A stretch of 63,992 nt of DNA, filler included, from Hausera hauseri (Eukaryota): NCBI GenBank assembly GCA_046269625.1. It is 12 parts of 12 records of this genome, joined end to end, with 100 filler letters (N's around TTAATTAATTAA, not from the genome) between each part and the next. Parts side by side here need not be neighbours in the genome. Positions count along the whole stretch, not along the records: positions 14,433 to 23,650 come from JBJURY010427696.1; 11 more parts are not named here. One strand, given 5' to 3'. Shown here piece by piece: positions 2,086 through 30,096 of the stretch; position 1 is the first letter of the stretch, and every line of letters starts with the position of its first letter. Position numbers and translations under genes: made by a program. The notes below the pieces were generated by a model. The model was not told the origin of the DNA, made no database searches, and saw only the letters and a list, made by a program, of their open reading frames with translations.

Positions 2086-2087
2086 TT

Positions 2088-4005: not shown

Positions 4006-4886
4006 GTTCGAAGGCCGTTTCATTCATAATGTATGGCTCAGTATCCTTTATTATTCATTGGTGAATGGCTGTTTTTCTTCACTGTTACATTCTGGAAGTT
4101 CGTAAACGCATTGATTCCATCTCTTATTGATGATCAGATTCCGGTCGGTTTGTTGTTCTTCTCGTTTGTAACCTTGCATGCGCTAATATTCTTCAACTCT
4201 TTCACCTTTAACTTCGACGATCTTTGAGAATTCTCATGGTGTTTCACTGCTTAATTACACCACATTTTCTATATATGTTTCCAGTATTCTCCGCTAATTT
4301 CTTTCGTGGAGGGGTGTGGTCCTCTGTGGCTCAATGCTTTGGACACTCAGATTTAGTGGGGCCATCGAAACGCTGGCGTCTCTTGCCGACGCCTCAAAGC
4401 CCCACGAGGTGTATGGGTCAACTAATTCCTTTCTGTTGTGGCTATTCTGAATGTGATATAGAATTCGTGCGTATTCGACATTTTTCATATCTGAAACAAC
4501 GTCTTCTCAATATCTGATTTAAGTCTACCATCTTGTTTGGTTTTTAAACTGTCAGGTCATATGCCTCTTGTAGAATAATGAATTATAATTTACTTTTGCT
4601 GGTTTGTAAAACATGGTTGGTACGCTCGCTTTCGATTGTGTGGTCGGGGATTCAATCCCAGCTGTGGCTCCAGGGGTCCATCCAGCCTCTAGAAATTGGT
4701 ACCGGAGAAAATGTGTGGGAAAGTAAACGCGGCCTGGCGTTACGCTGACCACATACACAGTTACCTGCCGTTGGTAAAAGAAAAATATGGACACAAACTC
4801 CACGTTCCCTTATACATCTTTAAGGCATGAGTGGTGTCCCCTTATTTTACCTTGTAGTTTGTAAAACGGCTTCGTCTTGTTATCCT

Positions 4887-5201
4887 TACTGGCTGGTTCC
4901 ATGTTTCATCTAACTCTTATGTATTTGTCAGTGATTCTATGCGTCAAGTAATACGGTGTCTTCTTCTGTTCCTTCTTCCCTGTGTGCTCTAGGTTGATGC
5001 CTGCCTAGTACAGGTATTTGCGGGTTTACCCAACGTATTTCATCGAGTATCGTCTTGTAATGCCTCCTTGGACTTCGCGCTGCCAGAAGTTTGAGTAGCT
5101 GATAGTGTCAGATACGTGTCTGAGTTGCTGATATGTGTGTCATCTTTCCTGTTTGCTGTTTTTAATTCCGCATCAGTGAGCTATCAGTTCTCTTCTGGTG
5201 A
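4887..5201 (-). repeat. Possible 5' LTR end plus PBS of the BEL element
   Basis: The minus strand reads ...GAAACA|TGGAACCAGCCAGTA, i.e. CA followed by a TGG-initiated, tRNA-Arg-like but imperfect PBS. Confidence 0.35.
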
Positions 5202-8750: not shown

Positions 8751-10036
8751 TATATAATCCTTATATCATTTTGAATAAAGCATTTCAAGTTTCGTCCTTT
8801 TACTGTAGCCAAATCTGTTTCTGCTGTCAACACGGAAAACAAGTGTTAAGAAGAACGAAATTAAACTGCGCCATATTTAAGCCGGTCTTAAATGTCTTAA
8901 GCTGCTTCTCATTTCCATGTAATAAAAAGTTACAAGGATCTTTGGAATTTGCTTTGGTAAGGAATTCTTTATAGCCTCATATTTAAACATTTTTCTGCTT
9001 TTACCCAACATTCGAGCTTTGAACGCTTATTTCTCACAAGAATATGCCAACCGTAATTTTTATGTCTTTTTTGAATCAATATGTGGAATCAATTGTTTGG
9101 GTGCATAACTCCCATAGGCTTATTGTTAAATGGTGGCGTTTAAATGCTTTGTTGTTAATATTGAACGACGTTTCAACCAAATCCGAAAGACGTATTCAAT
9201 TATTTTAATGCTGATTTTATTAATTCAAACAATTTTCAATCAGTGACAGAGAAGGTATTGAACCACGTCCTTTCATTTTAAATTTTACTTCAATTGACAT
9301 TATTTCACTTCTACACCCAGACTTTGATGCAATTCTGTATAATCAAGTAATTTTGTACGCTAATTAGAAATATGCAAATTATTTTTCTTATTATGTGGAA
9401 ATTTCTGAGTTCTGAATAATAAATTTTTATTATCGTTACTACTGGTATACGTTATTACCCAATGTGAAATCAAAATATTTACAAAATTACATTGCTTCGT
9501 TTAATAGACTAATGAGCATACGACGGTCAGATATTACACACAATTTTACACAAACCATTTTATATTTGGAAAGGATNNNNNNNNNNNNNNNNNNNNNNNN
9601 NNNNNNNNNNNNNNNNNNNNTTAATTAATTAANNNNNNNNNNNNNNNNNNNNNNNNNNNNNNNNNNNNNNNNNNNNGATATGTTAACCTCTAAGACACTT
9701 GAATGAAATAATACTTATATAGAAACATCTTGTGTACCATATACAACACCCACATCATATAACTTCTATAAAGAATCATCAACAAAATAATAAGAAATCA
9801 CTAGGGAATATATCAAGGTGATAAGGAATCAGTAGGGAATATATCAGGGTAATTAGGGAATATATGTGCAATATAGGAAAGGAATATATGGGTAACATAT
9901 GAGGAATATATGTGCCGTGTGTGTTTGTCTGTATGGGTAAAATGCAGTAAAGAAAATGTATAACTAAGATATGTGACTGTGCGCATATTCATGTGTGTGT
10001 GTGAGTAAAGATGTGAGTAAGAACCCGCATTTTCCC

Positions 10037-10790
10037 CTACTTTTTGATATCGGCTTTTTCCTTGTATCCTTGCAATTCAATATTCAGTATACACTTTAAA
10101 CAATCATCATCGGATACGTGAGACATTTCGCGACCGATAAAATCAAACAGTTTCATTTTCTGCGCTGGTAAATCGACAGATTGCTGTTGCACAATCGTTT
10201 CGTTTAATTTTAAATCCACGTTTAATTGATGTAGAGCATCAGAAAGTTTATCCAAAATTTCACCCTAAAGCCGTTTTACACGATAGCTGTACTTGGGCGC
10301 ACATAGAGACACTGGATCATTCAATGAAATCATTACGGGCGTTTGCAGAAAATGCATTTCATATTTGCGAAAAATTCGTTTCGGTAAAAATGTCTCTGTT
10401 TGACACGACGGTTTTGGTTTTCGTTTACGTATTCCAATCATTGCATTTTGCCTTTTTAACTTCGGTTTTGCTGTTGCTGATTTCTGAGAAAGTTCAATTT
10501 TCGTTTTCAGACAATCGCCCTGCAGATAATAGCCATTAAAAAGTTTTTCTAATTGCTGGACAGGTTCTGTTTTCGTTTCCAGCAGTTTGACATCAGAATT
10601 GTCCTTTTTGTAGCCAAACAACCACGACCAATCTGAACTTTCATCATTCACACAAGTACCATTGAGTAGAATCGTTTTATCGCCGTCTTGAATGGCAATA
10701 ATGTCTGAATGAACATGGGAATGGTATCTATAGTTTGCTGTGCAATGTACATTATTTTGATTCACTAAAACATTTATGTGGTTTTTAATG
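10037..10790 (-). CDS. Hypothetical viral-element proteins (ORFs 10265-10816 and 10037-10255)
   Basis: Compact ORFs co-oriented with the TBP-like gene; no recognised domain. Confidence 0.35.
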
Positions 10791-11215
10791 TAACTAATAC
10801 TCGGTTCATACTTCACTGTCCGAATATCGAGTACAATTTTTCTACTGCTAAATGCATTGGCACAAAGTGGGCGAAACGATGTCAGTCACAGTGCGGGAAA
10901 CAGTTCGGATTCAAACGTACACTTAGCAGTGGCCATTGCTAATTTGTACAGATTGATTCTTTGGTAGAGTAACTGAGTCACTACCGTTATTGACTGAATT
11001 TAGTCCATGACAATTCCAAATGGTAGTAGTTTACCGTTGTCAGCTGTGATTGGTTTGCGATAACCCATAATACGACACTTTCCTGATTGAAATACGATGC
11101 ATGTAAAATCCGGTGGACACTTGAGGACATACTGCCTCGGTTTCCATTGATTAAAAGGTAGTGTGTCAATGTCATACTCGGTAACATGTCCGCGATAGTT
11201 GATATTAGCTAACAT
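10790..11215 (-). pseudogene. Divergent TATA-box-binding protein (TBP)-like gene
   Basis: One frame with two stops: ...FTCIVFQSGKCRIMG...*IQSITVVTQL..RINLYKLA...FESELFPAL*L...FSSRKIVL. It echoes both TBP repeats (IFSSGKMVCTG; IQNMV..IRLEGL..YEPELFPGL..FVSGKVVL). Confidence 0.72.
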
Positions 11216-11310
11216 TATGGAAAGTGTTTATACAATAGCTATATATGTGTGTAACACGATTATAAACAAATCATGTGAGGCAATGTTGTATGATTATTAT
11301 TATTAGTTAG

Positions 11311-11958
11311 ATGCAGCTGCAGAATGACTCAATTATCCAGATTGTAGGCTCAAGTGGAAGTGGCAAAACGCACTTTGTGTGTAAACTATTGCAGAACTAC
11401 CGTGACATGTTCCATTCACCGCGGTACAATCATATTTACTGGCATCAGTATGTTGATGATGGTGAGTCCGGTTTTACACTGGGAATTTTGTAAATTAAAA
11501 TCGATGACGGTAAATGAGGAGTTTGATGAGGACTGGTCTGAGAGATTGCATAATGTTGACGTTATTGTCATTGACGATTTATTTCAAGAGGCCCCGAAAC
11601 AAACCAGACTTCAACAACCTGTTCACGACGATTGCACGACACCATGGTGTGACGGTTATTTTCATTACGCAAAACATGTTTTATCAGGGCGGACAGCATC
11701 GAACACTATTTAGTGTTGTTCAAAAATCACCGTGATTAGACTATCATTGATTATGTTGCACGACAAGCATTTCCTCACAACCGAGCCTACATGATAGATG
11801 CATATCATGATGCTACGACCGAGCCACACGGCTACTTCTTCATTGAATTTACTACACAACAGTGTCCCGATGACATGCGTGTACGAACAGACATTTTCAA
11901 TCAGAAAGGTGTGTCTATAAACACATTCAAAAATCGACATAATTATGATAAAAATTAA
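11311..11958 (+). pseudogene. A32/FtsK-like DNA packaging ATPase of a Polinton
   Basis: Walker A GSSGSGKT, Walker B VIVIDDL, ARHHGVTVIFITQN, VLFKNHRD, HGYFFIEF, RVRTDIF. Frameshifted. Confidence 0.9.
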
Positions 11959-12159
11959 GCATTTCCGAAAAACATTTATTAAACGTAAACCTACTTAGTG
12001 GATGTCAGGCAACAAGAAACGTGTATCAAAACGAACCGCTACAGTCAAGCGATTAATCAATTCTGTGCTTCGAACAACAGCAGCAGCAACTATTACCGTC
12101 TCAGTGGCAACGGTTATAAGAAACTACGTCTCATCAGCATCAATACGTCCTAAAAATAT

Positions 12160-12477
12160 GATTCAAACGTAGTCAACCTTACTTCATTGCTTTGCTCAAG
12201 GCACCTACGAGACATAAGCGAAACATGCTACGATTATTCCCGCAATTTGTAGTAAACGATGTTATGGAAATTTTGTACGATATCGCTGTGTCACGTTGTC
12301 ATTGGTAGTGGAAAGCGGAATTTATTAAAATATCGAAAACGGCTCACTGGCCTTGCCAACGCGCGTAGCAAACGACTGAAATAAGAGGTCATGTATCAGC
12401 AAAATGGCGGATTCCTTGGTGCAATTCCACCAGTTGTCACGTCATTACTGGGTGGAGTCATTGGTGGTACAGTTTAG
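12160..12477 (+). pseudogene. Small Polinton virion/core-type protein with C-terminal QxGGFL motif
   Basis: Ends YQQNGGFLGAIPPVVTSLLGGVIGGTV* after a basic segment, and lies directly after the ATPase. Confidence 0.55.
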
Positions 12478-12539
12478 TATAATCAATGACGGTAATTATA
12501 TGACGATTACAACTCCTATCTTGCATTGGTTTTGAGACG

Positions 12540-13147
12540 GTTCGGTGTAAACCGAACAATTCGGTGTTTCACAATACAAGGTTGTACTCGTTGAACGATT
12601 TAATCAAACCCTACTCGGCCGACTGAACAAATTCTTTACCAAGCATGGCAATAAACTTGGTAGATGAACTACCGGATATTATCCATGCATACAATCATTC
12701 GACACATCGTGGCATGAATGGATTACGGCTGGTGGATGAAATCGATGATTTTTTACACGTAGTTTTATCAAAACCGAACACGACGACGACGACGACGATC
12801 ACCTAAACGTCCCAAGTATAAAATCGGTGATTTATGTACTTATTTCAAAGCTGAGTTCGACACCATTCATTAAAAATTTCAATCAGAACTGGAGCAATGA
12901 GGTTTTCCAAATTTCAGAAATCAACAAAAAACAAATACCTGCTATGTACGTTTTAGAAGATGAAAATAGTGACGAAATACGTGGCAAATTTTACGAAAGA
13001 GAACTGCACGTACTACCGGAAAAACCTGATGTGTATCGTATTCAGGAAATTCTACGTTCACGCAGCAAAGGTTCTAATAAACAATGTCTCTTCAAGTGGC
13101 ATGGATACACTACACAGAGTTGGATATTTGCATCGAAGATTGAGTGA
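12540..13147 (+). pseudogene. Polinton retroviral-like integrase C-terminal half with chromodomain
   Basis: VERFNQTL..AYNHSTHRG; KYKIGD.V.ISK..F.K...QNWSNEVF; GKFYEREL; chromodomain YRIQEILRSR...CLFKWHGY...SWI. Confidence 0.85.
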
Positions 13148-14110
13148 TGAGCATTTATTTGGTACTCGATAGTAACAGATTATTAGAACATGACAACAAT
13201 ACAGCTGAACGGTTTACCATGGTGTTGGACCAGCCGCTCGATTTACGCCAGGGAGACTGGGAAGTGGCTTTTGTGGAATTCACATTTACATTTTCACCAA
13301 TAACAATACGTGAGAACAGTGGAATATACTATACTCTACTAAGACAATCTCCTGCATGTAGTCGTTTGCAGTTAGTCCGAGACTCTAATGGAACATTTCA
13401 CGTTCACAATTACAAGCGGCAATATTTCCTGGTTTATATTTTTCATTTAAACAATCGATTGGCGCGAAAACACAAACATCCGATTGAATAGCAATTTAAA
13501 TAACTAGCCGACGCTTAGGCATGGAGTCTACAGCTCGGTGGACATAGTATAATTAGCAAAAATTCGAACTTTTCAATGAAAACCATCGATATTACAGTGA
13601 CCTGGCAAAAGACTGAATCATTCTTTTACTCTCATACAACAGGAAATGGTTTTCTTACGGAAACGGAAATAGAATTGTGCGCAACCATCAAGATTGTAGC
13701 TAAATTGGCTCTGATGGTCGTATTTCGTTTACACTATATGATAATGTAACATATTTTGACTTTGATGAACTATTGGCACGGAATCTGGGTTTTAAGGAAC
13801 GAGAATTCGGTCAAACAGGCGGCGGACGGCCCATTGTTGCTAAAAACAAACCATCTCTCTACGGAGCATTTCATCGAATTAATATTTTAACGGATCTAAC
13901 CGAACCCGTATATGTTAGCAGAGACCGAAACAACTATTGACTTTTATTGGACTGGATCCGGACACATACAAAACACCGGGCGAAACTGCTCACGTAAATG
14001 TCATCCGACCCATGTATTTATCGTTGTCTCAGAATATTGTTCATAGTATTTCCGTGTATATCGTAAACGATTTTTGGAAACCCGTTAAATTTCTGTTCTT
14101 AATTTTCGTC
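13144..14110 (+). pseudogene. Polinton minor capsid (penton)-like gene
   Basis: N-terminus IYLVLDSN...NNTAERFTMVLDQPLDL..GDWEVAFVEF. C-terminus PMYLSLSQNIVHSISVYIVND..KPVKF. Confidence 0.72.
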
Positions 14111-14172
14111 GTCGTCGTCGATAATAAACAAAATGCGTCATCACTATCATCATCAACATCATCATCGAGATC

Positions 14173-14332
14173 ATGAGTATTTACGTAGTGTTGCCGAGCA
14201 ACAGTTGTCCGACGACTCGTACTTTGGATTTATCTTGAAAATAGGAGATTGCACCGACGGAATTTAACTTTCCCTACGCACCGGTGACATTGAAAGGTAG
14301 TATGAAAATAACGTACAACAAGACTGTTACTG
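14173..14332 (+). pseudogene. Second penton-like gene start (truncated)
   Basis: MSIYVVLPSNSCP parallels the start of the 13144 gene. Confidence 0.5.
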
Positions 14333-14432: not shown

Positions 14433-16186
14433 GGCGTAATAATAGCGGTCAAAATTTTACAGGAAAATCCAGTTAATGTGAATATCTCATACCCATTTAT
14501 GACAGCTTGAATTACTGCTTTGAATAATTGGACTAAGAAGTAGATGGCCAAAAATCCTGATGCAGCTTGTCCGAATATTAAAAACCTTCCCCACATTTTA
14601 TACAATATCTCTGAAGTTACTCTTTGATAATGGTTTGCGCCCAATAATGATTCCCATTTTGCTTGGAAGCGAGTGTCATCCATGACCATTGACATGGCCC
14701 GATTTAATTCATAAGTTCTTTGTCGTGGGAATGCTAAGAATTGCCTAAAAGCTTCTATGTCCTTTGGCCTATAAATCCCTTTACTGGCCGTATCTTCGAA
14801 TTTCTCTTCTGATAATCCTTTGATTAGATTAGTTCCAGTTAGTTTACTTGGGGCTGTAGTTGCGCCTCCATTAGGTAAACTTATCCAATTGTTTCCATTG
14901 CGGCGGAACATAGGTTCGCCTAGACTCGTTTTACATTCTTTTAATATTGTCGGTTCCGTTGAGTTTGCTAGAAGTACTCTAGTAAGTGGCATTGCTAACC
15001 TTGGTACGTTTTCATAAATTACAGGTAATTCTTGCATGCATCTCTTCTCTTCCACATTAATCGGTACGTCCTTTTTCTCACATTCGTAAGTAAGTAGAAC
15101 TTCTCCGGTAACTCGTCCGAATACGCCTTCCTTCATTGGTATGATCGGCGATGCTAGTTCTGGATTAGCGTAAATTAAGGCCAATTTAGTTCTCATGATT
15201 TCGGTATCCAATCGACAATCATTAGTGATCATCTTATGGTATAGTTCTGCTATTCCGGTTTGTCCCTTGTAATAAAAATAATCGTCTCGATTTTTGAGGT
15301 AATCTTCGATTCGTATGTCTTGTGTCTTCAAATCGTACGTTTTCATATTGATTTCGGTTTCCGCCACAAAAAATGCTTCGTAGTTTGTGGCATACATTAC
15401 TACATCGCAACGTGTTATCATATCCTTTCTAATGAATTTTAATCCATGTGCGTCAGATATTAATATCGTAGGTGTGGGTTGCTCCGCTACATCTTTCCTT
15501 GATCTTGTATCGGTATGAACTTGGTTGATATAACGTTTTCCAGTTGTCTCATTAAATGTTAACTCTTTGACTTTGATAAAGTTACAGTCCCCTTTTGATG
15601 GCGGATTCCACACCACGACTGAGCTTCGGAATGTACAGGCGCCATCTTGAAGGTGGCATTTCGGATTTTCAGTGAATAGTTTAGTGGTACTATGAAACAT
15701 TGCTTTTAAAGATCTCACCTCGGTTTCGTAAAAATCTACAACTACTACTCCTGCTTCTTTTCCTTTCCCAGTATCGTAATCTACCCCAACACAATGACCA
15801 GTATGCATATTCAACTTCCCAGCTGCTACCTTATAAGCCCGAATTATTTTTCCTTCTTGGGCTTCTAATTCCATACCATCCCAAACCATTTTATTAGTTA
15901 GCCGTGCTCCTAGACAATGTTGTCGATCTACATTCATTGGGATTAGCGGGGTAGTCGGCTTAATAATTGAAGAATGTCCGTACATGGCACCACAATGGAA
16001 TATGCTGCGCGATCTACGTATCATACATTCTGTTGCTTCCATTGCAATCAACTCTTGTTGTTGGTATAATATATATTTCTTTTCTATGGTGTCCAACTTG
16101 TGGGGCCTTGCATCTTCGCATGTTTCTAAGTCCATCAAGGAGTATTTTTGACCTACCTTAAATTTGTCACAATCGTATACAGTGAC
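14433..16186 (-). other. env: Chuvirus-like (class III-type) envelope glycoprotein domain
   Basis: VYDC..YSL.DLETC at the start; HCG; GEV...ECEKKDV...CMQELPVIY...P.TRVL; GIY...D...F.QFL.FP; membrane region WGRFLIFGQAASGFLAIYFLVQLFKAVIQAVINGYEI...GFS. This matches the chuviral G pattern as I recall it. Confidence 0.82.
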
Positions 16187-19100
16187 CGCTCCCATCTGCT
16201 TTACCAGCATAAGTATTGTTAGTAGGTTTATTAGCCAATTCGATTCGTTTCCTTTGTTTGAAGAGATTTTTCGGACCATTTCCTCTAGGTCATTAGTTCT
16301 TTTCCTATTATCTTCCTTTTCGAATAGTTTAGTCCATTTTATTTCTTTAGGTACCCTTTTCGCTGCCTTCCTTGCTAAGCCTATCGATTTTTCTATTTCA
16401 TTTTCCCGAAATGGGTTAGTTCTTACCGCCAAATATATCAATACCTTTCTTAATTCTTCCGTTGTATTATCTATCATAATCCGATCGATTACTGCTTCGT
16501 CAGGAAGAGTACTTTTGGATAATTTAAATCGTGAAGTCTTCATGGTACGTGCTATATTATATATTAGCCTTTCTTTTTCAGAAAGTGTATCCCCTTGTAG
16601 TCCGGTATAGTTGACTATTCTTATCAAGTCCTTCATTAGCTCGACTAATTCTTCATTGTCCGAACTTGGAGTTGGTACTGATAGTTGCCTTAGTTCTCTA
16701 ATTAAATCTGCATTATGATCCGCTTCTTTTATTTTTCTCGGCCTTCCAACCGGTCGTTTTGGTTTTGTTGGTGGCATAGTTTCACTTAACGGAACTAAAT
16801 TCTTATCATATTGAGGCTTGTCGTCGTCCGTTTGTAAATATTCGAAATACATCGCAGCGTCATGAATTCCCATAATTTTTCCGACACAATGTTCGGTATG
16901 TGCCTTTCTTATAGCTTCGTCTTTGGTCTGTTCGCTTGTGATTATCGCTACTATCCGGTTTGTTTCGAGTGGTATGATCCCTACATCTATTAAATACTCG
17001 GGTTCGTCCAGTATTCTACCTCTGAAATAGAGTCGATAGTTGACTCCTTCCTTACCCTCTTTATTTATTATTTGTTGTTTTATGTCTCCGACGGTGGTAT
17101 ACGTAGTACATTCGAACTCCTCGTCATCTATTCCTTCAGATGATATCTTTACCTTCATTTGCGCTTCCGGTTTGTTTTTCAACAATTTGGCGTACTCTTT
17201 TATCAAGAGTTTAGGTACGGCGCTATACGCAGTGTTCTCACTGGATAATTTAGTCAAGGTTGGAATCAACTTCCTCAATTTTTCTTCACTTGTGTTTATT
17301 CTCAACATGTTACTCAGTTCCTTTTCAGCTAGTATAGGATCTAGTAGCATTTGCGCATCAAATTTCGTCTTGTGTGTACCAACAGGCGACTCATAAATGT
17401 GTATTGGCGTTCTCGGGTTCTGTTCCGTTAAACCCTGGAGATATTCGTCCCATTCGGCTTCGTTATCAACATCCGGTAACTCCAGGTTTGCTAATGCCGC
17501 TTGTCCTACTTGGACTCTTTCCCGTAATTCGCTCAATTGTGGTTGTAGTATTTTCATGATGGACACCCTAAATCCATCTCTGCTTCCGCAGGCTTGTTGT
17601 ATCAGTTTAATTAGTCGACACATTTCCTCTGGCTGTATCAAGGCCTTATCTTGGTAATTGGTCACTTCCGCGATCCTATCAACTTGCCATTTCTGTATGA
17701 ATTCTGCTTTGTCATTCAATTCTGTTTCTGTCAAAGAATATTTATTTTTATAACTTTCTGCTTCTCTCAGTAATTCATTTATTTTCAGTTGTCTTCTCTC
17801 AGAACGTAGTCGGGTTTCTTTTATCAGACGTATGCGGTCGGTCAGTCTTTTTGCTACTGCTTCATCAATTTCTGCCATTTCGGTCAATAATAAGATTAAT
17901 TTCTGGATTTGATTAAGTACCTCAGCATCTGGATCTATCGCGTCCATTAGTCTTCTTATAAATTTTACTTCCTCGCTAGTCAGCTGCAAGTCGTTTATGA
18001 TTTCCGTTAATTCGGAATGACAAGATAAGTCAAATCCTGGTGACCATCCGGCTGAGTTTTGTATATACTGTAACGTCTGTGCTATGGCAATCCGGTGGTC
18101 CTTACACATTTCTAATGTTTCTATTTCCTGTATGGAGATTTCTTTTAGTGGTTTCTGTATCAAGTGCTGTATCCCTTCCCAACGAAGATTTACTAAACTT
18201 CGTTGGAGATCACTTAGCTTGTTTCTTTTCTTATAAAAGTCTTTTTCTTGTATGATCTCGTATATTTCTATCATCGTTACTTGCTCTTGAGCCTGATTTA
18301 TGAATTTGAGTTCTCGGTATGATTCGAATTTAATTCGTAACTTCGCTTCATCCTGCATTGTACCGATATCTAACAGCATCTCTTCCAACTGGTGTTTCAT
18401 TATTGGTTCGGCCACAGCAAATTCTCTTAACCTCTCTTTTATTACTCCTGCTATTAAAGGTAACAAATCTGTCCACTTCTGCAGTTGTTTGGTTATTAAC
18501 GGCTTCATATATATTATTTCATCTAATGCTTCAAGAGCTTCTCGTAATTTGTGGTCCGGTCCTCGTACAAATTCTATGATTTGTTTTATATAGTTGAATT
18601 CTTCTTTATATTCTTCTAACTCAAGCAGACAAGAACGTATTACTCTCTGTACCTCTGTATTTTCGGAGTCGATTATGCCGATCCTTAAATCGTTGATTTC
18701 TGCTCGCATCTCGTTTTCCTTTTGGATACGTGTCTGTACATCTGAGTATTTGTGAGGCTTATCTTTGATTAAGTTACACATTTTCAATAAAAAGAAGATA
18801 TCGGTTTGTTCTATATTCAGTATTCTCAAATCGACTTCAGTCAGTTCATATACGGCTTTATTATGTAGGTAAGAATTTATAGCTTTCTCCATCTCAATCA
18901 TTAATTCTTCTAAGTTCCGTCGTACGCGTTTTAATTTTGGGTTAGCCTTTAGTGTGTCTAACAATCGTTGTGCTTGGTTTACTTGACCGAGAAATGGTTC
19001 GTTTTTATTCCACCATATTTTCGTAAAATCGATATTATTTGTTGTCCATAGTTCTAATTTATCTTGCCAATCTTTTATTATACGTAGTTGTATTTCCAGC

Positions 19101-21037
19101 GATTCACATGGTATGGCTTCTTCGCCTTTCTGTATGCCAGTTTTAATCTTTCTATATAACTTTTCTATAAATTGTTGCTCCTTTCCGGAGATATCCAGCT
19201 GCTTACTAAATTGTTGTAGCTTTTGCAGGTTTTCGATTGATTTTTGCGGATCGTCCAGAGTATCTCTTATTTCTGCTAGCTCATCCGCATTTTTCCAAGA
19301 TTTTCTGATTTTTCCATAAGCCGTGGATTTCTCTTCTTTTGATTCCTCTTCGCTAGATGGTAGTGGACATATTTCATTAATTTCGTTGATATTTACGATA
19401 CTTGTGGACTCTGGGACTATAATAGGAGTATTTAGCTCCGTCTCATCTCGTAGATTGATAGTAAAGACATCCTCTATTACATCCTTCTTAACAGGAGATC
19501 GTGAACGGGTTCTTGACCTTCTCCTAAGAGAGGGACTTCTACCTCTATTCTTGGTTATTTTAAGTATTAATGGTCCGATGAATTCGCTCTCAACTTCATC
19601 TGCTGTTTTCTCTTTAGCTGGAGTTACGATCTCAGTATCTGCATCCAAGTCTATACTCGGAGATGCGGTCGATTTTTCTTTCTTTTCTTCCTTTGCTGGT
19701 TGATCTCTATTTTTCTTCCTAGCCATATTAGTACCTTTAGGCGCTATAGCCTTTTCATATTCCGTTTTTGGTTCTCTTAACCCATGATAAACTTCCAATT
19801 GATGCAACTTCTCTTCATACTCCTGTCTAGCCTTAATTACTTGCGGATTATTAGATTCACCCATATTCCTTACATATCGTCGTAAATCTTGCATTTCAAT
19901 AATCATACTTATATCTCCTCGCTTTCCGTAAATTCCTTCTAGATTCTCTTTTATCATACTAGCCTTACTAGTCTCTGCAAATGATACACTTCGTGGGTTA
20001 GGACATGATCTAGCTATGTGTCCTTCTTTGCCACATGAATAACAAATCAAATTCCCATCGCGTCCGATTCTTTGTCTTCCATCTTCATTTACTGGTGATT
20101 TAGGTCTACCAGTGTTTTTATTTTGAACTGATTTATCGATTCCATTATTTCGATTTTCATAATTCCGACTTCCCGTATATCGATTCTTGTTATATCGGTC
20201 ATCACTTCTGTCCGGATTATAACTTGTTTTACCATACATGTCTGTACTGTAACTTGTTTTATTATACATGTTCCTGTTATCATATCTCGTATTGCGATTG
20301 AAGGTATTTTGAGCTCTATTCTCATATCCTCGATCTCTATTACTGTCATTGAACCTTTTATTACTCCGGTTTCTATCTCGATTGTCACGGTCATTATTTC
20401 GTTCATATCTATCATTCTGTTTGGCATATCTATCCAGTGCCATTTCTAAATTTTGAGCTAATTGTAATGCCGTTTCAAAATTATCTGGCCGAGCCAAGAT
20501 TAGCTGCTTAACTAAATCTCTAGACCATATTCCGTTTATCAATTGCGTTGTCATCATAACATCTAAATCTGGTGGACTAGCCTTTTCTGCCGCTTCTCGT
20601 TCTGCATCTGTTTTCGCTTTTGCTGCATTAGCTATTCGTAACGTACTTACATAACTATTGGCCAATTTTTTTAGTGCAAATGCAAACTGAGTAACTGACT
20701 CGCCCTTTTGTTGAGTTCTATTCTGAAAAGCCATAAGCTTCTGTTGCGGCGTAACTGTCGGCAATAATTTACGATTTAAGGCTCCTACTAGGGAAGACCA
20801 TGATTTCTTCTCATCGTTAGTTAATTCGCTATATGCGTCTGCGGCTAGATTTTTCAAGTATAGAGATAATCGCTTAATCATAACTTCTGATGCGAGGCTG
20901 GCACCTTCTGCGTGCAGTTTATAAGTCCGTAAAAAGTCGTTTAATCCATCTGGATCTCCGTCATATGCGGGTAAATTTAACGAATCGAACGTAAATATAT
21001 CAAGTTTCTGAGCTACTGCTGGGTTGTCTGCTGCCAT
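14433..21037 (-). CDS. Polyprotein: Ty3/Gypsy-type Gag (CA + CCHC) - helical spacer - ubiquitin-like - AT-hook - signal peptide - chuvirus-like glycoprotein
   Basis: About 2,200 codons with no stop; first ATG at 21037 (frame open from ~21238). Gag: LPAYDG, YLKNLAADAY, W..L..AL..K, QQKGESVTQFAFALKKLA, P.NFETALQLA; CYSCGKEGHIARSC at 20003-20044. UBL at 16940-17158; KRPVGRPRK at ~16733-16760; hydrophobic signal at 16187-16237; Cys-rich glycoprotein from 16186. Confidence 0.92.
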
Positions 21038-21381
21038 TTTAGTTTTATTTAATTTGTCTACTTTAGTTTTACGAGGAACTTTGAATTCTTGAATTAGGTT
21101 TAATTCCGTATCGGATAATTGGTTTTTATCTATTGTCTGGTTTTTAATATAAAATTTATTGCGAGTTTCTCTTTGACTATCGTTTGCCAATAAGTTTTGA
21201 TAAGAATTAGCTCTATCAATGTTCGCTTTCAGCTTGAATTATTTATTACCCTCTATCAACTTATATTCCCAAATTTTAGATTCTCAAATCTTCCTATATC
21301 AATTACTTGATGTGAGTGGCGCTATTCGCCGGTGTGTCGTTATTTGATTTCTCAAAAGTAAAGTCTAGCGAGGCACAAACT

Positions 21382-21399
21382 GTCCTGCTAGGGTCGCCA
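21382..21399 (-). promoter_or_regulatory. Primer-binding site, tRNA-Arg type
   Basis: TGGCGACCCTAGCAGGAC begins 4 nt after the LTR end TGTAACA and is complementary to a ...GGUCGCCA tRNA 3' end, as in tRNA-Arg(TCG). Confidence 0.8.
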
Positions 21400-21403
21400 A
21401 ATA

Positions 21404-22162
21404 TGTTACAGTTAGGGTGGCCCTTATCCGTCCCCACTATAACAATATTATTTCTAATTTATAATTCGCTCTTTGAGCAGGTTAGGATTACTCGTTCTCG
21501 AGTAATCGACTTGTGCCTTATGATTAAGAGATTTTAGAACTGAATGCCTGTACTGCGTGCCGTAGAATCAAATGTCTCAGATTAAATACTCTAGTCTTAT
21601 CTATTTAACTTTTAGTCAGATTTTTATCCTAGGGTAGTCCAAATCAGCTTTAAGAGCCGATGAAAAACTATGTAAGGATTTTAGAACAATCAATAATATA
21701 TACCTTTATTAAAACACCCAATTTACAATAGTTTATGATCAGATACGCTTTATATCGTCAATAAGTAACCAATTGAACGTCGTCAATGAAAATGTAACTT
21801 CTCGTTTGACCGACTCTAAGTCGTGTACTGAACCTTTTTTCAAGAGAATCAATTTCGAATCGTTTTAGTTTTCGCTGCGAACCTAAGTCGCAAAATTTTG
21901 TTCCCTTCTACCTTCTCTCACATCGGTTTATATACTCTGATTTATATCGTCATAACGTTATTCTCAGATTAATTCATTTTTTTCGCATGTTGTTTCACGT
22001 CCAATTCGGCTTAAAATCAATTTTCGGCATTATAAACCTAACTTGATTTCGATAATAATAATTCAATATGTACAATTTTACAATCGCTGTATTTTCCGAC
22101 ACCAATAATCAGTAACGTATTTACAATTATTCTCTCACATTTATATCTGTCATTTTCTCACA
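21404..22162 (-). repeat. 5' LTR (~760 bp)
   Basis: Starts TGTGAGA where homology to the Tc3 TIR stops and ends TGTAACA before the PBS. TATATAAA at 21927-21934 and AATAAA at 21705-21710, both on the minus strand. Confidence 0.7.
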
Positions 22163-23617
22163 AACATATTTAATTTTTTGCATAAAACTTTTTGAAAAAT
22201 TACAGCCGATAGATGTTTTTGGCCGTGGACACGAAATTATGGACACTTTTCAAAAAATGCCAAAACATTTTATTAAAACAAAATTTTCACACAATATGTC
22301 TAACATTTCGTGGATCCTCCACTAACCTTTATCACCTCGAAAATCCTTGTGGGAAGCGACTGGTACAAGGATTTGATGTCGTTCTCACCGATCTCTTTCC
22401 ACGACTTGATTATGTCGGTTTTCAACTCATCCCGGGTCTCATACTGCTCCACAGAGATTTTCCATGATATTCAAATCAGGGCTCTTTGACGGCCAATTCA
22501 AAACGGTGATTTTATTGTCTTGAAACCACCGTTTCACAATATTCGCCATATGGACAGATGCGCGTCCCTGCTGGAAAATGTAGTTTCATCCTCCTTTCCG
22601 GACAGCATGGAAAGCGTCATGCAGTTTCAAAGTGTCATACATTATCTTAATGTAGTCCTCCGCCTTTACAGTCGTTTCAATAAATACAAGTTCAAATTCC
22701 CCTGCCGCCCAACGGCGCCCCATACTATCACAGATCCACTTCCGCTCTCTCGCTTTGAATACAATATCTGCTCCTTCGCAGGTCATGACAGTAGTGTTGA
22801 AATCCGTCGGGAGCGTCGAAGTTAAACTTTTTTTCATCACTAAAGATGATTTTTTCCCATTCCTTAGTCCAATACATCCATTCACGAGCACGTTGTAATC
22901 TGGCTTCTTCATGTTTTTTCGTTAGGGGCGGTTTACCCTAGATTTTCTTAAATTGGAGATGTGGAGATTCTTGAATCACTCGTCAAACTGTTCTGGCGTG
23001 AACTGGGTGATTATTTCGTTCTTTAATTTGAGCAGAGGAGATGTTCTGATTGCTAGCATCTCGAAGAATCGTCCGCTTATCTCGATTTAATAATTTTGAC
23101 TTTCTCTTCTTGTATTGTTTTCGCCCGTAATTAACCTAAGAACTTAAATAATGGAGCACAACAGTTGGTAACCTTTCAGTTTGTCGTCCAATTGCACGAG
23201 CACTGCATCCTGATCCATGAAATCGATCAATTTGGACCTTTTCAGCAGCAGTTAATCCTGGTTGTTTTCTCATACTTATTGTTTATGAAGTAGTAGTTAG
23301 AGTCAATTAAAAAGCAAATCGATATTGTTGTAGTTACCTACTTTACAGAATATTCATTTTCTCCAAACTATCAGTTAGCAATACTTCACAACAAGTTGGA
23401 CAAGTGGTTAACTATAAGTGTCCATAATTTCGTGTCCAGAGGTAAAAACATCTATAGGCTGATATTTTTCCAAACGTTTTATATAAATATTTAAATGTTT
23501 TACAAGCATAATTTGCTAATCTGAATCGAACTCAAATAAACCCATTTCCTCATTTTGCTATATACTTGCAAATATTGCGAAATTTGGGGTGTCCATAATT
23601 TCGTGTCCAGGGCTATA
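22163..23617 (-). mobile_element. Tc1/mariner (Tc3-like) transposon with IR/DR ends; one TIR interrupted by the LTR element
   Basis: DR GTGTCCATAATTTCGTGTCCA at ~23419 and ~23589, inverted at ~22226-22246. Terminal TA. Transposase remnant inside. Confidence 0.88.
22300..23273 (-). pseudogene. Tc3-like DDE transposase
   Basis: MRKQPGLTAAEK...; IFSDEKKFNFDAPDG; WPSKSPDLNIMEN; ends GGSTKC*. Frameshifted. Confidence 0.88.
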
Positions 23618-24029
23618 TATGAATCAAATGAAGTAATAGAAAAATTAACTNNNNNNNNNNNNNNNNNNNNNNNNNNNNNNNNNNNNNNNNNNNNTTAATT
23701 AATTAANNNNNNNNNNNNNNNNNNNNNNNNNNNNNNNNNNNNNNNNNNNNCCATGAACTCACATCAAAGATAAAATTACCGAGACTGAAAATCTGAAAGT
23801 TTAAAAAGATATCTTTTCTAAAAGTTCATCAGATCCCTTCGGTACCCCGGTAATTTGATGACACTGATTTTAGAACTAATTCAATTGTGAACATAAATTA
23901 AGTCGTGATCTGGCTACAACAGAGTCGCTCGTGAGATATACACTAAAAATTACATTCCATACATCCCACGACGATACCGGAAGTCAACACGACGAAAATC
24001 GATATCAGTCAGTGTGTCAATAACAAAAA

Positions 24030-24869: not shown

Positions 24870-25920
24870 TCCAAATGAGTTGATTGTAAACTACACTGTA
24901 GAGCAACCATACTAAAAACTGTTGGCCTATGTTTGGAAAAAACCGAATGTTTCGCTACTAAATCCGTAATCCAATCAACAATGCGTTGTTGCAATTGCCG
25001 ACAACGCTGAATGTTATTGTGCAAACGCAATTCGACGTACACATGCAGCCATGCAATACCGAAATAGGAAATTCCATTTTGCTCATTTATAATATTGCTC
25101 GATGTTAGCAATTCCAATACCGACTCATCAAGTAATGTGACGAAGAATTCCTTCGAGATTGATTCGTGTTGCGGGAAATGGATTGTAAAACGTGCATGCA
25201 TAATCATAGAGAAAAATCATGTGAATAATTTGATCGAAATTCGAACTGGTAATCGTTGAATGACTTACTGAATTCGACGTCAACATTGCCAACTGATTAC
25301 AAGCGTGCCCGGACGTCGAGTTGATTTTAACAGCCCAATCATAATAAAATTTTGCCTGCTTTGTTAAATTCTGATATCAAAATAAATCTCCCAAATGAAC
25401 ATAACAATGTTGTAAAATATATCGCAAATCTGTTTCCGACACGTGAGAACCTTTGACACTCTCTTGTCGAATTAAAGTATTGTTCTTTGAAAAATGCTTT
25501 GGACATGGCAATTGAATATCGTAAAGCAGACTTAAAATAGCGATAAATTTTGAGTAGAAATCAACAGCTTCGTCAAGAAAAATAGAATGTTCCACTTGGG
25601 CAGATGAGGCTTCAGCTTTATCTTTACTTTTAATTTTGGTTTGCAATTCTGATATTGACTTTTTAAATAAATTGACCACATATCTTGTTCAATTTTATGA
25701 GTAATGATGTCCCTCAAGCTGTACAGATTTAAGGTAAAATAAGATTCTTCCAATTCTTGTCGAATTATAACTTTTTTGCAATTATCCGAAGTTGCAATGT
25801 ACCGCGCCAAAATCGTATTTGTTTTCTCCAGATGTGACAAAATCCGTATTATCTGACCGAGAAGTATTAGTTCCTTTAGGGATTTCCAAAAGCCCTCTTG
25901 GTAATTTGTTCATCGTCATG
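24870..25920 (-). pseudogene. SMG7: SMG7/EST1-family nonsense-mediated decay factor, N-terminal domain, disrupted
   Basis: RQELEESY...KIEQDMW; QHCYVHLGDLF*YQN...AKFYY..A...GHACNQLAML; IFLY...PFPATRINL. In-frame TGA at the conserved Arg and at least two frameshifts. Confidence 0.8.
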
Positions 25921-26042
25921 CCCTGAAAACTCGAATTATTTGTATTTTAGCTAAAAGTCATGAGTAATTAAGAAATCCAATAAAGCGCAATATCCATATT
26001 CAGAAAACATTTTCTTCGGCAGCAACTAACGATTAACGCACC

Positions 26043-26167
26043 TGCAACGGTATTGAATTCTTAAGGTGGGGAGTCGAATCCGACTATTGATCCGACGCGG
26101 CGAAAACGGACGCCTGGCCGTTTCCGACCAAATGGGCCAAAGGGCACTGGACGCTGTGGGCACCACA
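26043..26167 (-). repeat. Short 3' LTR (~125 bp)
   Basis: TGTGGTG...CCGTTGCA immediately after the PPT; homologous to 34363-34494 and 49700-49828. Confidence 0.65.
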
Positions 26168-29100
26168 TCACCCCCCGCGGAAAAGCGAAAACTATAAAGA
26201 GTAAAAGAGACAGAGGAAAAAAATTGCCAAACGAAAAAGTGTCTGTCAGTTGGTCTTAGTGTGAACAAGGCGTTGGGTGCCTTCTACTGATTTTTCCCAG
26301 CTATGCTTGCTAAATGTGACTGCATGTTTTGTCTTTATGCAATGTGTTTGCTTGCAGAGTTTGAAGTTGGGGAAAAAATTGTCGGATTTTGTTGTGAGTG
26401 ATGTGTCGTGCAAAGATGAGTCAGAATAAAGAGGAGAAGAAGGTGAAGGAGGACGAGAGGTTGTTAGAGACAGACGGTTAAAGGTGTTCAAGAAAGTGTT
26501 AGAAGACGAAGGGATGACAAAAGGTGTAGTGGCGGAAGAAGGAGGTGAGATGAATATTGGAGTAGAAGTTGGAATTGTATTAGGAGAAAGAGTGGAAGTG
26601 GAAGGTGAAACAGAGGTAGTAGTTGATCGAGAAAGAGAGATAGAAATAGACGTAAAGAGAGGAGAAAGTTGCAAAGCGGAAATGAAGGGGGTAAGGGACG
26701 ATGTGTGAGGAGAAAGGGAGAAAGAACGCGCCGAAGATGAGGAAGGTGTGGAAGGAGAAAGAGAGAGAGGACGGTGAAGAGGGACAAAACAGAAGAGAGC
26801 AAGAAGATGGAGAAGGAGAAGGAAAGTAGTTGGAAAGTGGTTTGCAAGAGGTTGGAATGATGAAAGGGTTAGATGGAGAGATTGGTGAAGACGAAGTGGT
26901 GTTTGATGGAGGAGAAATCATTTTGTTATCAGGGGACGAAAGAGGTGTGAGAAGGCTTGAAGGTGCAAAATAGGAGGGGGAAAGAAGATGACCTGTCAGA
27001 AGAAATTGAAGTAGAAGTTTTGGGAGAAAAAGTAGGGGAAAGTGGGTTGAAGAATTGAGCAGAGATGGAGGGTGGATTGCTGAATTGCTGCGCGTCGTGT
27101 AAAGATGTTTGTGGAGAAGTAGTTTCGTTTGGAGACGTTTCGTCAATGAAGATAGCCGGCTTAGCGTTGTTGATGCGGACTGTTACTTCTTTGTCGTCCT
27201 TGAGAATAATGATGTTGTGAGAATGTAAACGAATTACTTTGTAAAGGCCGACATACTGAGGTTGAAAACCACATAGCGTCTGATTTTTTAGCCATACGAA
27301 CTTGGCAGTATATAAATCGTCGAGTATGTAAGGTTTATTTCCGTGTAATAGTCTACAAAATGAGTCTTTGTTGATCTCAATGAAATGTCTCTGTGCCGCT
27401 TGTATGGTTTTGTCTGTAGGAATATTGTCCAGCTTAGCCAGCTGGAACAATGATCTGATAGATGTGCTGAATAATGCACCTGCAAGTGAACAGCCTGTAG
27501 AAGTAGATGGTGTGTTCCTCCAGCCAAGCAAAACGTACGGAAGGAGTGTGATCCAACTGCGATTGGACTCAGCAAGGATTTTGAGAGACGTTTTCATCGT
27601 TCGGTGGAAGCGTTCGAGAAGGCCATTCGATTGAGGATTATATGGTGACGTGTGAATGTGGTTAATTCCCAACTGATTGACAAGAGCTTTAAGCACGTTG
27701 GATTCAAACTGTGGACCTTGGTCCGAAATAATGTGGCGAGGTGATCCAAACCTGCTGATCCAAGTGCGGATGAAAACATCTGCGATTGTTCCTGCGTTGG
27801 TGCTCCGAAGCGGGGCAGCATCTGGCTATCGCGAGGAACGGTCCGTCATTGTGAGGATGAACTGATGGCTGTTGTCTAGGGGTAATGGGCCTACAAGGTT
27901 AATGTGAACAAATTCAAAACGAGACTTTCAGGGCCAACGATATAGTGGTGGCTTTAAGTGCTTATTAACTTTGTATTTTTGGCATACCACACACTGCCTA
28001 ACCCATGCCTGCACGTCAGATCGCACCGACGGCCATTCTACTTGGCGTTGTAAGAGTCGAAAGTAGCCTTGGTACCGGGATGATGCAACAAATGGATGTT
28101 GTTGAATACTTCTATTTGAAGCGATTGAGAAAGGATGACTTTAGGATTATTAGGTTTGGAGGTGTCAAAGGCCACGCCGTCGATGGTTTTGCTCAATTTA
28201 AAAGATTTAAGGATGTCAATGGGTGGCTGGTTTTGTTAAAGTTTGGTTTGAGGGACAAAAAGTCAGATACTAAATTGTCGACTCCGTCTAGGTGCTTAAT
28301 TTCAAAATTAAATGTGGACAAATACGATATTTGCCTCTCCTGACGTGGAGAAGGAGATTTCATGGTGAGAATTTGGAGCAAGGGCTTGTGGTCCGTTTGT
28401 ATTGTGAAGGTTCATGCGGTTAGAAGATGCTTAAAGTGTTTTACGGCAAGGACCATTGCAAGCAACTCTCTGTCAAAGGTGGAATATCTTTGCTCTTGTG
28501 CCGTGAATTTTCGAGAAAAGAATTATAATGGCTCATGGGATCCATTTTTGACTTAATGGAGGATAGCACCTGCAGCTATTGTGGATGCATCCGTGGTTAA
28601 AAAGGAGTTCTGCATGGGAGTCAGGATAGGCCAGGATGTCCACGGTTTTTAGATTATCTTTGAGGTGATCGAAAGCGTTGACTAGCTTAGCGGTCCATTG
28701 AATAGTCTGCTTTTCTTGCCAGAGCTTAGTAATGCGAATGGAGCGGCTAGAGTGGAGCGGTGTGGAACATACTTATGAATAAAATGCAAGGTTCTGAGGA
28801 AATAACACATTTCTGTTGATGTACGTGGTAGTTGCATGTTTTGAGCTGTGAGGCGCTCTGGCTGAGGTGAGTGTCCGGACAAGCTAATAACGTGTCCTAG
28901 GAAGTTGACCTTATGATGAAAAAAAGAGCATTTGGAGAAATTAATTTGCAAATTGTTTTAGTGCAAGCGCTGGAATATTAAACGTAAGTGCTCGGAGTGA
29001 TGTTTCGAGGAACTGTATCAATATGCCTTTGGAAGGTCTGGGAAGCACTACGGAGTCCAAAAGGCATAAAAAGGTATTCGAAAAGGCCGAAATGTGTAAT

Positions 29101-30096
29101 GACAGCCGTTTTCGGAATGTCTGCTGGGGCCACCGGAATTTGATTGTATGTTTTGTGCAAATCAATACAGGAAAAATGATCGAACCATGGAACCTATAAA
29201 GGATATCGTTGATTAATGGTAGAGGGTAGGCATCAATTTTTTTTTATGATGTTGAGTTGGCGGTAATCACTCATGAGAGAAAGGTACCATCTTTTTTTGA
29301 AACTACATGTAGGGGTGAAGACCACGGGAATTTGGATCTTCTGATTATTCCTTATATTTCCAGTTCGAGAGACTCAGCCTCCACTGCGGGCGGACCTTTT
29401 GACGTATTGGTCTTTGATGTGCTGTTACTATGTGATGGAAGGTAGATTTAGGTGGTACAAATGATTTGTCCTTTTGCAACATACGTGTGCAGGAAGACGA
29501 AATACATTGCTGTAAATCAGAGGGCAACGATGAAAAGTTATCAGGCGATGTCGATGCATTGTGACTGGATGCAGTTGAGGTATGAGTTGTAGACAAGGTG
29601 TTGTGATAAGGTGGTATTTAGTGCAAGATGTTCGTGTTGAAGATGGTATTGGCTGCTGTACTGTCAGTAATAGGTGCCACGCAGTTGGCAACATCGTGTT
29701 TGTTGCCGTAATAAAAATTTCCATATAATGAATGATTATAAAAATAATTTAAATCGAAAGTTGTTTACTTTAGTATTGACTTGCTGGAAGTGATCGCCCG
29801 GGTGGTAACTGAAATGTTGCTAATTTAATTAAAATTATTTCCGCTCTTTAAGGAACATCGTTTGCAGTCTACAAGTAAATTGTAGTGGGACAGGAAGTCT
29901 GAACCCAATATAAGTGTGCGTACTTTGGCTGCTGTAAATTTCCAAGTGAATGTGTTTGGAAGATTTGGAAGTGTAAAAGTTAATTTAGTAACACCAAAAG
30001 TTTGTAAAGGTTCACCGGGCGCAGTGAACAGTTGCTTTTTTGAAGTGAAATTGTTTTGGATGTGCTGTGTTGGTGGTAATAAAGAGATTGCTGCGC
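26043..30096 (-). mobile_element. Ty3/Gypsy element, family A copy 1 (PR-RT-RH-IN, pyrimidine-rich tail, PPT, short 3' LTR)
   Basis: ILGSDFL; KTAVITHFGLFEYLFMPFGL; STFDRELLA; HTSPYNPQSNGLLERFHR. G-rich PPT at ~26171-26179. Confidence 0.93.

Follow-up and report, generated by a model that had tools for sequence, protein, structure and literature searches.

A probable Ty3/Gypsy LTR element in Hausera hauseri with Gag, a ubiquitin-like domain and a class III envelope glycoprotein in one frame, cut by a contig end

Our main reading (probability about 0.9) takes the sequence described here as the 5' portion of a Ty3/Gypsy LTR element. Its Gag, ubiquitin-fold domain and class III envelope glycoprotein (Env) share one frame, which is interrupted by the contig end, and protease (PR), reverse transcriptase (RT) and integrase (IN) most likely follow in frame past that point, in the manner of Burro-type GAG-ENV-POL elements. 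An earlier note on this DNA had described the element as pol-less. The contig stops ahead of the point at which pol starts in related proteins, so this description is not supported.

The reading frame, the LTR and the insertion site

The window (the whole stretch of DNA analysed, 63,992 nucleotides with filler) is made up of 12 contigs, and the element lies on one of 9.2 kb. Position 14433 is an end of this contig, next to the spacer N44-TTAATTAATTAA-N44, and the minus-strand frame is still open there. The frame runs from 21238 to 14435, 2,268 codons without a stop; under the local base composition, such an open frame would arise by chance with a probability of ~1e-75. The contig break cuts Env, and no stop codon is reached. 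The summed depth of contigs increases steeply at 14433-14740, which would fit a break due to sequence shared by many copies. There was no second ORF of more than 400 aa within the whole window, in agreement with the earlier description of this frame as the only intact mobile-element ORF present. The LTR, the primer-binding site (PBS) and the approximately 2,200 stop-free codons from Gag to Env reported in that note were also confirmed (Table 1).

Table 1. Features of the element and its insertion target, in window coordinates.
Feature	Positions	Strand	Basis or remark
Decayed, presumably Tc1-like DNA transposon, insertion target	22163..23613	(-)	right inverted repeat interrupted at 22163
5' LTR, 759 bp, TG...CA	21404..22162	(-)	outer end set by Tc1 inverted-repeat cut and contigs of two public runs
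Primer-binding site	21382..21399	(-)	starts 4 nt past LTR; likely tRNA-Arg
Single ORF from first ATG	14435..21037	(-)	2,201 codons; open at contig end
Gag capsid region, aa 68-270	20429..21037	(-)	Pfam; BLASTP to relatives' Gag
Single CCHC zinc knuckle, aa 399-412	20003..20044	(-)	after R/N/D/S-rich low-complexity stretch
Spacer without detected homologue, aa 430-1289	17372..19951	(-)	charged linker and helical-looking part
Ubiquitin-like (beta-grasp) domain, aa 1359-1438	16925..17164	(-)	AF2, VIA-align, profile
AT-hook-like GRP motif, aa 1495-1502	16733..16756	(-)	comparison with relatives
Helical region, relatives' Bcl-2-like slot	16319..16663	(-)	matching position; Bcl-2 identity not established
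Internal signal-peptide-like hydrophobic stretch, aa 1668-1684	16187..16237	(-)	hydropathy; same position in relatives; cleavage site inferred
Class III (chuvirus G / herpes gB-like) Env	14433..16186	(-)	Pfam, fold search; 14 ectodomain cysteines

The LTR contains TATA-like motifs at 21946 and 21934 and an AATAAA at 21710. The decayed transposon that it interrupts was assigned to the Tc1 family from DDE-type motifs recognized by eye, an assignment that we take as presumptive. Contigs in two public sequencing runs (X1 and X2) depart from the window sequence exactly at 22162, and one contig in each run has 12 consecutive purines beyond that position, on the element's sense strand. A run of 12 purines before a matching LTR start is as expected for a polypurine tract (PPT) ahead of a 3' LTR, and the X2 contig with this tract matches the LTR at every position for 208 nt. 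The element thus has a 3' LTR, seen as a PPT-like tract and matching LTR start in two public runs, and the combination of TG...CA ends, PBS and PPT-like tract fits a Ty3/Gypsy element. The priming tRNA is likely tRNA-Arg: the 3' 8 nt of the PBS equal the tRNA ends assigned to Arg in a published supplement (PMC13524379 supp1), and the closest 12-mer, compared by eye, was Arg_CCG with 2 mismatches. No host tRNA genes were found in the window.

Gag, cargo region and envelope

The N-terminal part of the protein (P0001) is a retrotransposon-type Gag with a CCHC knuckle, as in Ty3/Gypsy elements. The Pfam match for the capsid was weak (Retrotrans_gag at 125-195, E 0.005, below cut-off), and BLASTP linked the region to the Gag of pol-bearing relatives (P0002, E 2e-22; P0018, E 3e-17). 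The knuckle was matched by zf-CCHC at 399-414 (E 6e-6). These matches bear out a Gypsy-type Gag with one CCHC, as first proposed. A search with Gag against proteins of 635-2,000 aa gave no match, which is weak evidence.

The spacer after the knuckle begins with a charged linker that has an RS-rich patch, followed by ~650 aa that are rich in E/K/L/I, poor in G/P and probably helical. It matched no Pfam family and no internal repeats were found in it. Searches with aa 430-1665 against proteins under 1,247 aa found no homologue, and aa 600-1679 gave no usable Atlas match. On sequence alone, the spacer would be excluded as Pol.

The ubiquitin-like domain (Ubl) that had been suggested for this region was confirmed by its modelled fold and by a profile of the relatives' domains. 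Its AF2 model (pLDDT ~70-80) gave a VIA-align Z of 12.0 and an rmsd of 2.2 A over 77 residues. The Pfam match to ubiquitin (1374-1421, E 4e-4) was below cut-off. The relatives' profile scored 18.7 bits, compared to at most 6.4 across 300 shuffles, in a test made partly circular by the use of P0001 in the alignment that located the slices; P0007 was matched independently. The domain has no C-terminal GG, and is therefore likely a binding module rather than a conjugated tag.

The GRP motif downstream, which we take to be AT-hook-like, has a similar counterpart 5' of Env in five of the eight relatives checked (P0004, P0007, P0008, P0018 and P0155) and is absent upstream of Env in the other three (P0002, P0005 and P0015). 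Atlas scores for aa 1495-1665 were all under 0.8. At the position of the helical region, relatives have a Bcl-2-like slot, with a Pfam Bcl-2 match in P0006 (E 1e-3) and a GGW-type motif in P0003, P0015, P0018 and L002. A Bcl-2 fold for aa 1526-1640 of P0001 was not supported: a profile scored -1.9 bits and hhalign gave a probability of 2.7%, neither significant, and the AF2 model (pLDDT under 50 in the slot, 36 for this segment) was unusable.

The Env region matches Pfam Monjiviricetes_fusion at 1670-2267 (E 3e-66, profile positions 6-592 of 653), so that the contig end cuts Env ~60 profile positions short. Together with the fold search, this match upholds the proposed homology of 14433-16186 to chuviral or class III glycoproteins. 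Solved structures were matched by the fold search only; an Env sequence profile matched none of them, and no relative was found among viral contigs. A transmembrane stretch lies at aa 2218-2249 (14587-14492), and the class III Env is thus flanked by a signal-peptide-like stretch and a transmembrane helix, as in gB-type errantiviruses.

Pol in relatives and the competing readings

In Pfam searches over the ORF, none of the PR, RT, RNase H and integrase families appeared at E values up to 10. The ORF has no DTG or YxDD motif, and the Pol parts of five relatives, searched against the six frames of the contig, gave nothing better than E 0.99. Env therefore follows Gag with no pol between them, as in gB-type errantiviruses and as the earlier note had observed.

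In a FastTree phylogeny of Env (77 sequences of 128 eligible, out of 154 examined), P0001 falls within an 18-member clade with support of 1.0. A protease motif follows Env in frame in 13 of the 18 members, two of the 13 belonging to one 90% cluster; Pfam confirmed the protease in those 13 and detected RT/RNase H in eight of them. The remaining five, including P0001, end in or just past Env. The relatives' protease motif lies 79-339 aa beyond the equivalent of P0001's last residue. One relative, P0002 (3,700 aa), encodes Gag-CCHC-Ubl-Env-PR-RT-RH-IN within a single frame, and its similarity to P0001 covers Gag (E 3e-23), the Ubl region (E 9e-4) and Env (E 2e-93). In loci L001 and L002, the DNA context of P0002, one ORF (3,703 and 3,426 codons) covers both Env and Pol; neither locus shows an LTR pair. 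Among the best 19 HMMER hits, all 11 whose sequence extends beyond Env by more than 150 aa have an in-frame protease; the other eight, of which three (P0006, P0015 and P0021) end 9-54 residues past Env and five inside it, may end at stop codons or at contig ends. The earlier note had offered two readings, of which the gag-env-pol order is favored by the 13 protease-bearing clade members and the pol-less satellite is disfavored by a contig that ends before the relatives' pol.

We regard as improbable a gag-env-pol element in which a stop or frameshift precedes pol and makes it a separate ORF, or a copy that is broken past the contig end. One published search (PMC13524379) allowed ENV and POL to be as much as 2,000 nt apart, and P0006 and P0021 extend 21 and 54 aa past Env, but the frame continues in the 13 clade members and in L001 and L002.

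It is very unlikely that the element is a non-autonomous, enveloped satellite without a pol of its own, providing capsid and fusogen and relying on another element's Pol in trans. Such an element would account for a 6.8-kb ORF without pol and for the three close relatives that end shortly after Env, among them P0015, a 1,963-aa protein without pol. The P0001 Env is also on a long branch (1.25, vs 0.0-0.9 for most clade members), and the distance of the 3' LTR and its PPT from Env is not fixed by the contigs. However, the LTR, the PBS and the intact 2,201-codon frame give no indication of internal deletion, the sequence ends before pol would begin, and none of the 11 longer hits lacks an in-frame protease. 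A more specific version, in which a young multi-copy satellite derived from a Burro-like element combines an intact Gag-cargo-Env polyprotein and an 860-residue domain of obscure origin with a helper's Pol, has in our estimate a very small chance of being correct. A literature text search for pol-less enveloped satellite elements found none, the sole match being unrelated fungal work.

A chimeric assembly join of a Gypsy gag to a chuvirus-derived endogenous glycoprotein is largely refuted and hardly credible: none of the contigs listed spans the whole stretch and the many divergent copies (12,641 contigs at 80% in X1) could be mis-joined, but the 2,268 codons form a single stop-free frame, the listing at 98% identity showed no joints, 30/30 bins were covered in X1 and no indel was listed in the ORF, and the Gag-Ubl-Env order recurs in the independent relatives P0002, P0005, P0007 and P0018.

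Elsewhere in the window, a decayed pol at 62664-63083 is 56-59% identical to the RT of core clade members, which are 68-88% alike, and it is therefore not clearly the pol of this element. The contig at 51286-55762, of similar composition, did not match any of 16 clade proteins.

Related elements, copies and a possible way of working

The earlier note had called the architecture unusual, but the layout is already published, both for Burro and for GAG-ENV-POL errantiviruses. Burro and GYPSM1 are giant Gypsy elements of Schmidtea mediterranea, with a relative in Dugesia tigrina, for which an in-frame Gag-Ubl-Bcl-2-Env-Pol order was described (Arkhipova & Yushenova 2019, PMC6431247). By that description rather than by direct sequence comparison, Burro resembles the present element in its single polyprotein, its Gag with CCHC, long cargo region and Ubi2/SUMO-like domain, and an in-frame Env that matches mononegavirus fusion glycoproteins. 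The Burro Env lies between gag and pol, and the BCL2 slot of Burro corresponds in position to the helical region here. P0001 likewise has Gag and Env in one frame with a ubiquitin/SUMO-like domain between them. Burro1 has ankyrin repeats, which are also present in P0155 (4,844 aa), a relative of the P0001 Env. In contrast to P0001, the Burro elements described have two or three CCHC knuckles instead of one, and a MATH or BIR domain that we did not detect here. Burro-like elements are giant (over 30 kb) and have planarian hosts; our contig covers 9.2 kb. The P0001 element also differs in its unrecognizable Bcl-2 slot, its spacer without detected homologue and its 759-bp LTR, and no pol was seen on its contig.

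Ty3/gypsy errantiviruses with an HSV/gB-type Env and GAG-ENV-POL order are known from Platyhelminthes, Nematoda and Bryozoa, for example Smed_errantivirus_1-6 of cysteine group C1a (Chary & Hayashi 2026, PMC13524379). The flatworm hosts listed there are Macrostomum, Prostheceraeus and Schmidtea. These elements resemble ours in its probable gene order, in a gB/chuvirus-like Env, and in being multi-copy and apparently recent. By eye and without alignment, the six Smed rows for Env domains I-II share motifs and an 8-cysteine pattern with P0001 aa 1738-1944. The main text of that paper does not contain the words ubiquitin, Burro or polyprotein, and none of its 9 flatworm or 10 bryozoan rows lists a tRNA-Arg PBS. 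Non-canonical nematode ERVs also have ENV ahead of POL (Sacco et al. 2022, as cited in PMC13524379), a likeness by description only.

The mosquito Anakin elements share a chuvirus-like class III glycoprotein within an LTR retroelement but are BEL/Pao (Dezordi et al. 2020, PMC7642597; 2023 follow-up, PMC10084718), whereas the P0001 element is Gypsy. The P0001 Env groups with relatives in which protease follows Env, in a clade that leaves out the BEL-linked Env P0049 (DUF5641 upstream), and the single-CCHC Gag likewise does not fit Anakin. Oikopleura Tor (PMC4402516), C. elegans Cer1 (PMC10309623) and Troyka (PMC12440569) were checked and, as described, do not fit.

The element is apparently multi-copy and recently active. 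Near-identical copies are present in runs X1 and X2, with no indel among the differences listed inside the ORF, consistent with the recent activity proposed in the earlier note. For divergent copies, 24 of 35 in-ORF differences (the best-supported 35 of >1,700) are at third codon positions, compared to 6/17 (X2) and 1/5 (X1) for the near-identical copies. Because this signal is mixed, we make no claim of selection.

Under the gag-env-pol reading, RNA driven by the LTR would be translated as one polyprotein. Synthesis of Gag and the cargo domains would take place in the cytosol. The internal signal sequence would then direct Env through the membrane into the ER lumen, and cleavage by host signal peptidase would separate Gag-cargo from it. 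At the Env transmembrane helix the chain would cross back to the cytosol, which would put a downstream protease-RT-RNase H-integrase on Gag's side of the membrane, where the element's own protease would cut it free. The particle, primed by tRNA-Arg, might then bud with the gB-like fusogen. Such elements raise the question of how capsid, a membrane-inserted fusogen and Pol can all come from a single polyprotein in workable amounts, and what role the Ubl and Bcl-2 cargo has in the host.

With this element, the in-frame gag-env-pol Gypsy elements gain a member that is fairly divergent and appears to have been active recently. Contigs of this family often end in or near Env and so look pol-less. 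Specific to this member are the longest Gag-to-Env distance among the eight proteins with both marks (1,289 aa, vs 234-825 in the others), the ~860 residues for which no homologue was detected, and what seems to be a decayed Bcl-2 slot.

The Gag-to-Env reading frame

The minus strand was free of stop codons for 2,268 codons, from position 21238 to the end of the contig. From the first ATG (21037) there were 2,201 codons, matching the approximately 2,200 claimed in the earlier note, and the probability of such a frame by chance is ~1e-75 given the local composition. The LTR and primer binding site described there were located, and the Gag with one CCHC knuckle, the ubiquitin-like domain (Ubl) and the chuvirus-like Env were each recovered by Pfam in P0001, the polyprotein of this frame. 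The element is a genuine feature that the note described accurately.

Features of the element and of its polyprotein, P0001
Feature	Position	Strand	Detail
Contig bearing the element	14433-23650		
5' LTR	22162-21404	-	Cuts right inverted repeat of decayed Tc1 element
PBS	Starts 21399	-	After LTR
Retrotrans_gag			Pfam E 0.005
Single CCHC			Pfam E 6e-6
Ubiquitin			Pfam E 4e-4
Internal signal sequence	aa 1668-1684		
Monjiviricetes_fusion	aa 1670-2267		Pfam E 3e-66; profile match stops at position 592/653

An AF2 model of aa 1290-1996 was built on a 7-sequence alignment. Its Env half matched chu-like virus glycoproteins (E 7e-18) and herpesvirus gB (E 2e-8), and aa 1359-1438 matched ubiquitin-fold proteins (Z 12.0, with an rmsd of 2.2 A over 77 residues). 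The Env ectodomain has 14 cysteines and two N-glycosylation sequons, and no furin motif was found in it.

Probable position of pol

The earlier note saw no Pol motifs in this ORF and offered two readings, a pol-less element or a gag-env-pol order. Pfam and motif searches likewise detected no Pol family or motif in the ORF, and the Pol regions of five relatives gave nothing better than E 0.99 against the contig. The frame was still open where the contig ends, 19 residues beyond the predicted transmembrane stretch. Because the first protease motif of relatives lies 79-339 residues past the equivalent of the contig's last residue, the lack of pol on this contig is uninformative.

The sole match in a word-index search among long proteins, P0002 (3,700 aa), has the order Gag-CCHC-Ubl-Env-PR-RT-RH-IN, and the two DNA loci fetched for it, L001 and L002, encode Env and Pol in single ORFs of 3,703 and 3,426 codons. 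A HMMER search of 1.84 billion representatives gave 778 matches at E up to 0.001. Among the best 19 of these, 11 extended >150 aa beyond Env, all 11 with an in-frame protease; five ended inside Env, and three ended 9-54 aa after it, at either a stop codon or a contig end. In an Env tree (FastTree, midpoint root; 77 of 128 eligible sequences, drawn from 154), P0001 nested within an 18-member clade (support 1.0). An in-frame protease was present in 13 members (two of which share one 90% cluster), RT was in the same frame as Env in eight, and the remaining five, including P0001, ended in or just after Env.

We conclude, with a probability of about 0.9, that the element is a contig-truncated, divergent member of the published gag-env-pol kind. 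It seems unlikely that its pol is separate or broken, given the single ORFs of relatives. The pol-less satellite, which the pol-free ORF had suggested, is improbable, since the contig ends before the relatives' protease; of the note's two readings, the gag-env-pol order is the one favored by the clade. A chimeric join, which the note had named as a refuter, is very improbable, as no joint was listed at 98% identity in X1 or X2, two public runs with matching contigs.

PMC6431247 describes planarian Burro elements with a single ORF containing Gag and CCHC knuckles, a Ubi2/SUMO-like domain, BCL2, Env with mononegavirus glycoprotein matches, and then PR-RT-RH-IN. In PMC13524379, gB-type Gypsy elements with GAG-ENV-POL order are reported from Nematoda, Bryozoa and Platyhelminthes, with as many as 215 copies in Schmidtea; six Schmidtea Env rows shown there appeared, by eye, similar to P0001 Env. 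Anakin is a BEL/Pao element (PMC7642597), and a BEL-linked Env falls in a different part of our tree from P0001.

Several related proteins had additional features. P0155 (4,844 aa) has seven aspartic-protease-like domains, some after integrase, together with ankyrin repeats and a C2H2 finger; P0007 has four such domains after Env, and P0004 has three. A separate DEDDh-type exonuclease ORF lies downstream at L001:12085-13470 and L002:10617-12104 (Pfam RNase_T, E 1e-3 and 1e-5). Beyond its integrase, the C-terminus of P0002 has a second stretch that by eye resembles a signal peptide plus transmembrane protein. NCBI assigns P0005 to a Flavobacteriaceae MAG; the protein itself is an Env-Pol retroelement product of animal type, and the assignment is probably a binning error.

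Cargo, topology and copies

Ubl was also present in P0002 (two copies), P0005, P0007, P0015, P0018 and L002, and in P0001 it is likely a binding module. Ahead of Env, P0006 has a Bcl-2-like domain according to Pfam (E 1e-3), and a motif points to one in P0003, P0015, P0018 and L002 as well. The corresponding slot of P0001 is helical, yet its score was no better than chance. Residues 430-1289 of P0001 had no family, homologue or repeat in the searches made. In a single polyprotein, the Gag-cargo part would lie on the cytosolic side, the internal signal sequence would place the class III Env ectodomain in the lumen, and the Env transmembrane helix would return the chain to the cytosol, where Pol would follow. 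Signal peptidase and the element's own protease would process the chain.

Parts of the stretch were present in six public runs. At 80% identity, 12,641 contigs from X1 lie on the stretch and 10,368 of them are <95% identical, indicating that the family is large and diverse; summed contig depth does not equal copy number. At 98% identity, 30/30 bins were covered in X1 and 25/30 in X2, and the three indels listed were all within the LTR. Past 22162, one contig in each run leaves the Tc1 path and enters 12 consecutive purines (element sense strand) ahead of an LTR match, which in X2 is identical to the window LTR across 208 nt. The purine run is consistent with a PPT upstream of a 3' LTR that is almost the same as the 5' LTR, and hence with a young two-LTR element, although these contigs do not give the distance from Env to the 3' LTR. 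Indications of selection on the ORF were mixed.

Other contents of the window

The window is made up of 12 contigs of 4.0-9.2 kb each, with spacers of the form N44-TTAATTAATTAA-N44. Among the other contigs, Gypsy and BEL/Pao elements occur in decayed form alongside a piece of a MANEC-domain gene, which marks the assembly as that of an animal. A decayed BEL/Pao element on contig 1-5201 (3151-3657, minus strand) has DUF1759, CCCH fingers and Peptidase_A17; the first part of its gag frame is ubiquitin-like (Pfam E 0.002) and terminates in LKGG, possibly a ubiquitin-Gag fusion. At 51286-55762 (minus strand), one contig has a signal-peptide-like stretch and several helical-looking ORF pieces of 100-250 aa, with a strand bias resembling that of the spacer within the element (aa 430-1289). 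Neither a Pfam family nor similarity to any of 16 clade proteins was detected in this region, which is perhaps a decayed cargo region from another giant element. On contig 9677-14332, ORF pieces at 11348-11713 and 12749-13147, neither with a Pfam match, by eye resemble a Polinton/Maverick ATPase and integrase C-terminus. A decayed Gypsy pol at 61706-63990 (plus strand) has an RT that shares 56-59% identity with the gag-env-pol core clade, compared to 35-46% for other Gypsy RTs in the window, but this RT does not clearly fall inside that clade. One ordinary Gypsy family is represented by three decayed copies on three contigs (25500-29500, 34500-37600 and 46700-49700) that are 67-90% alike.
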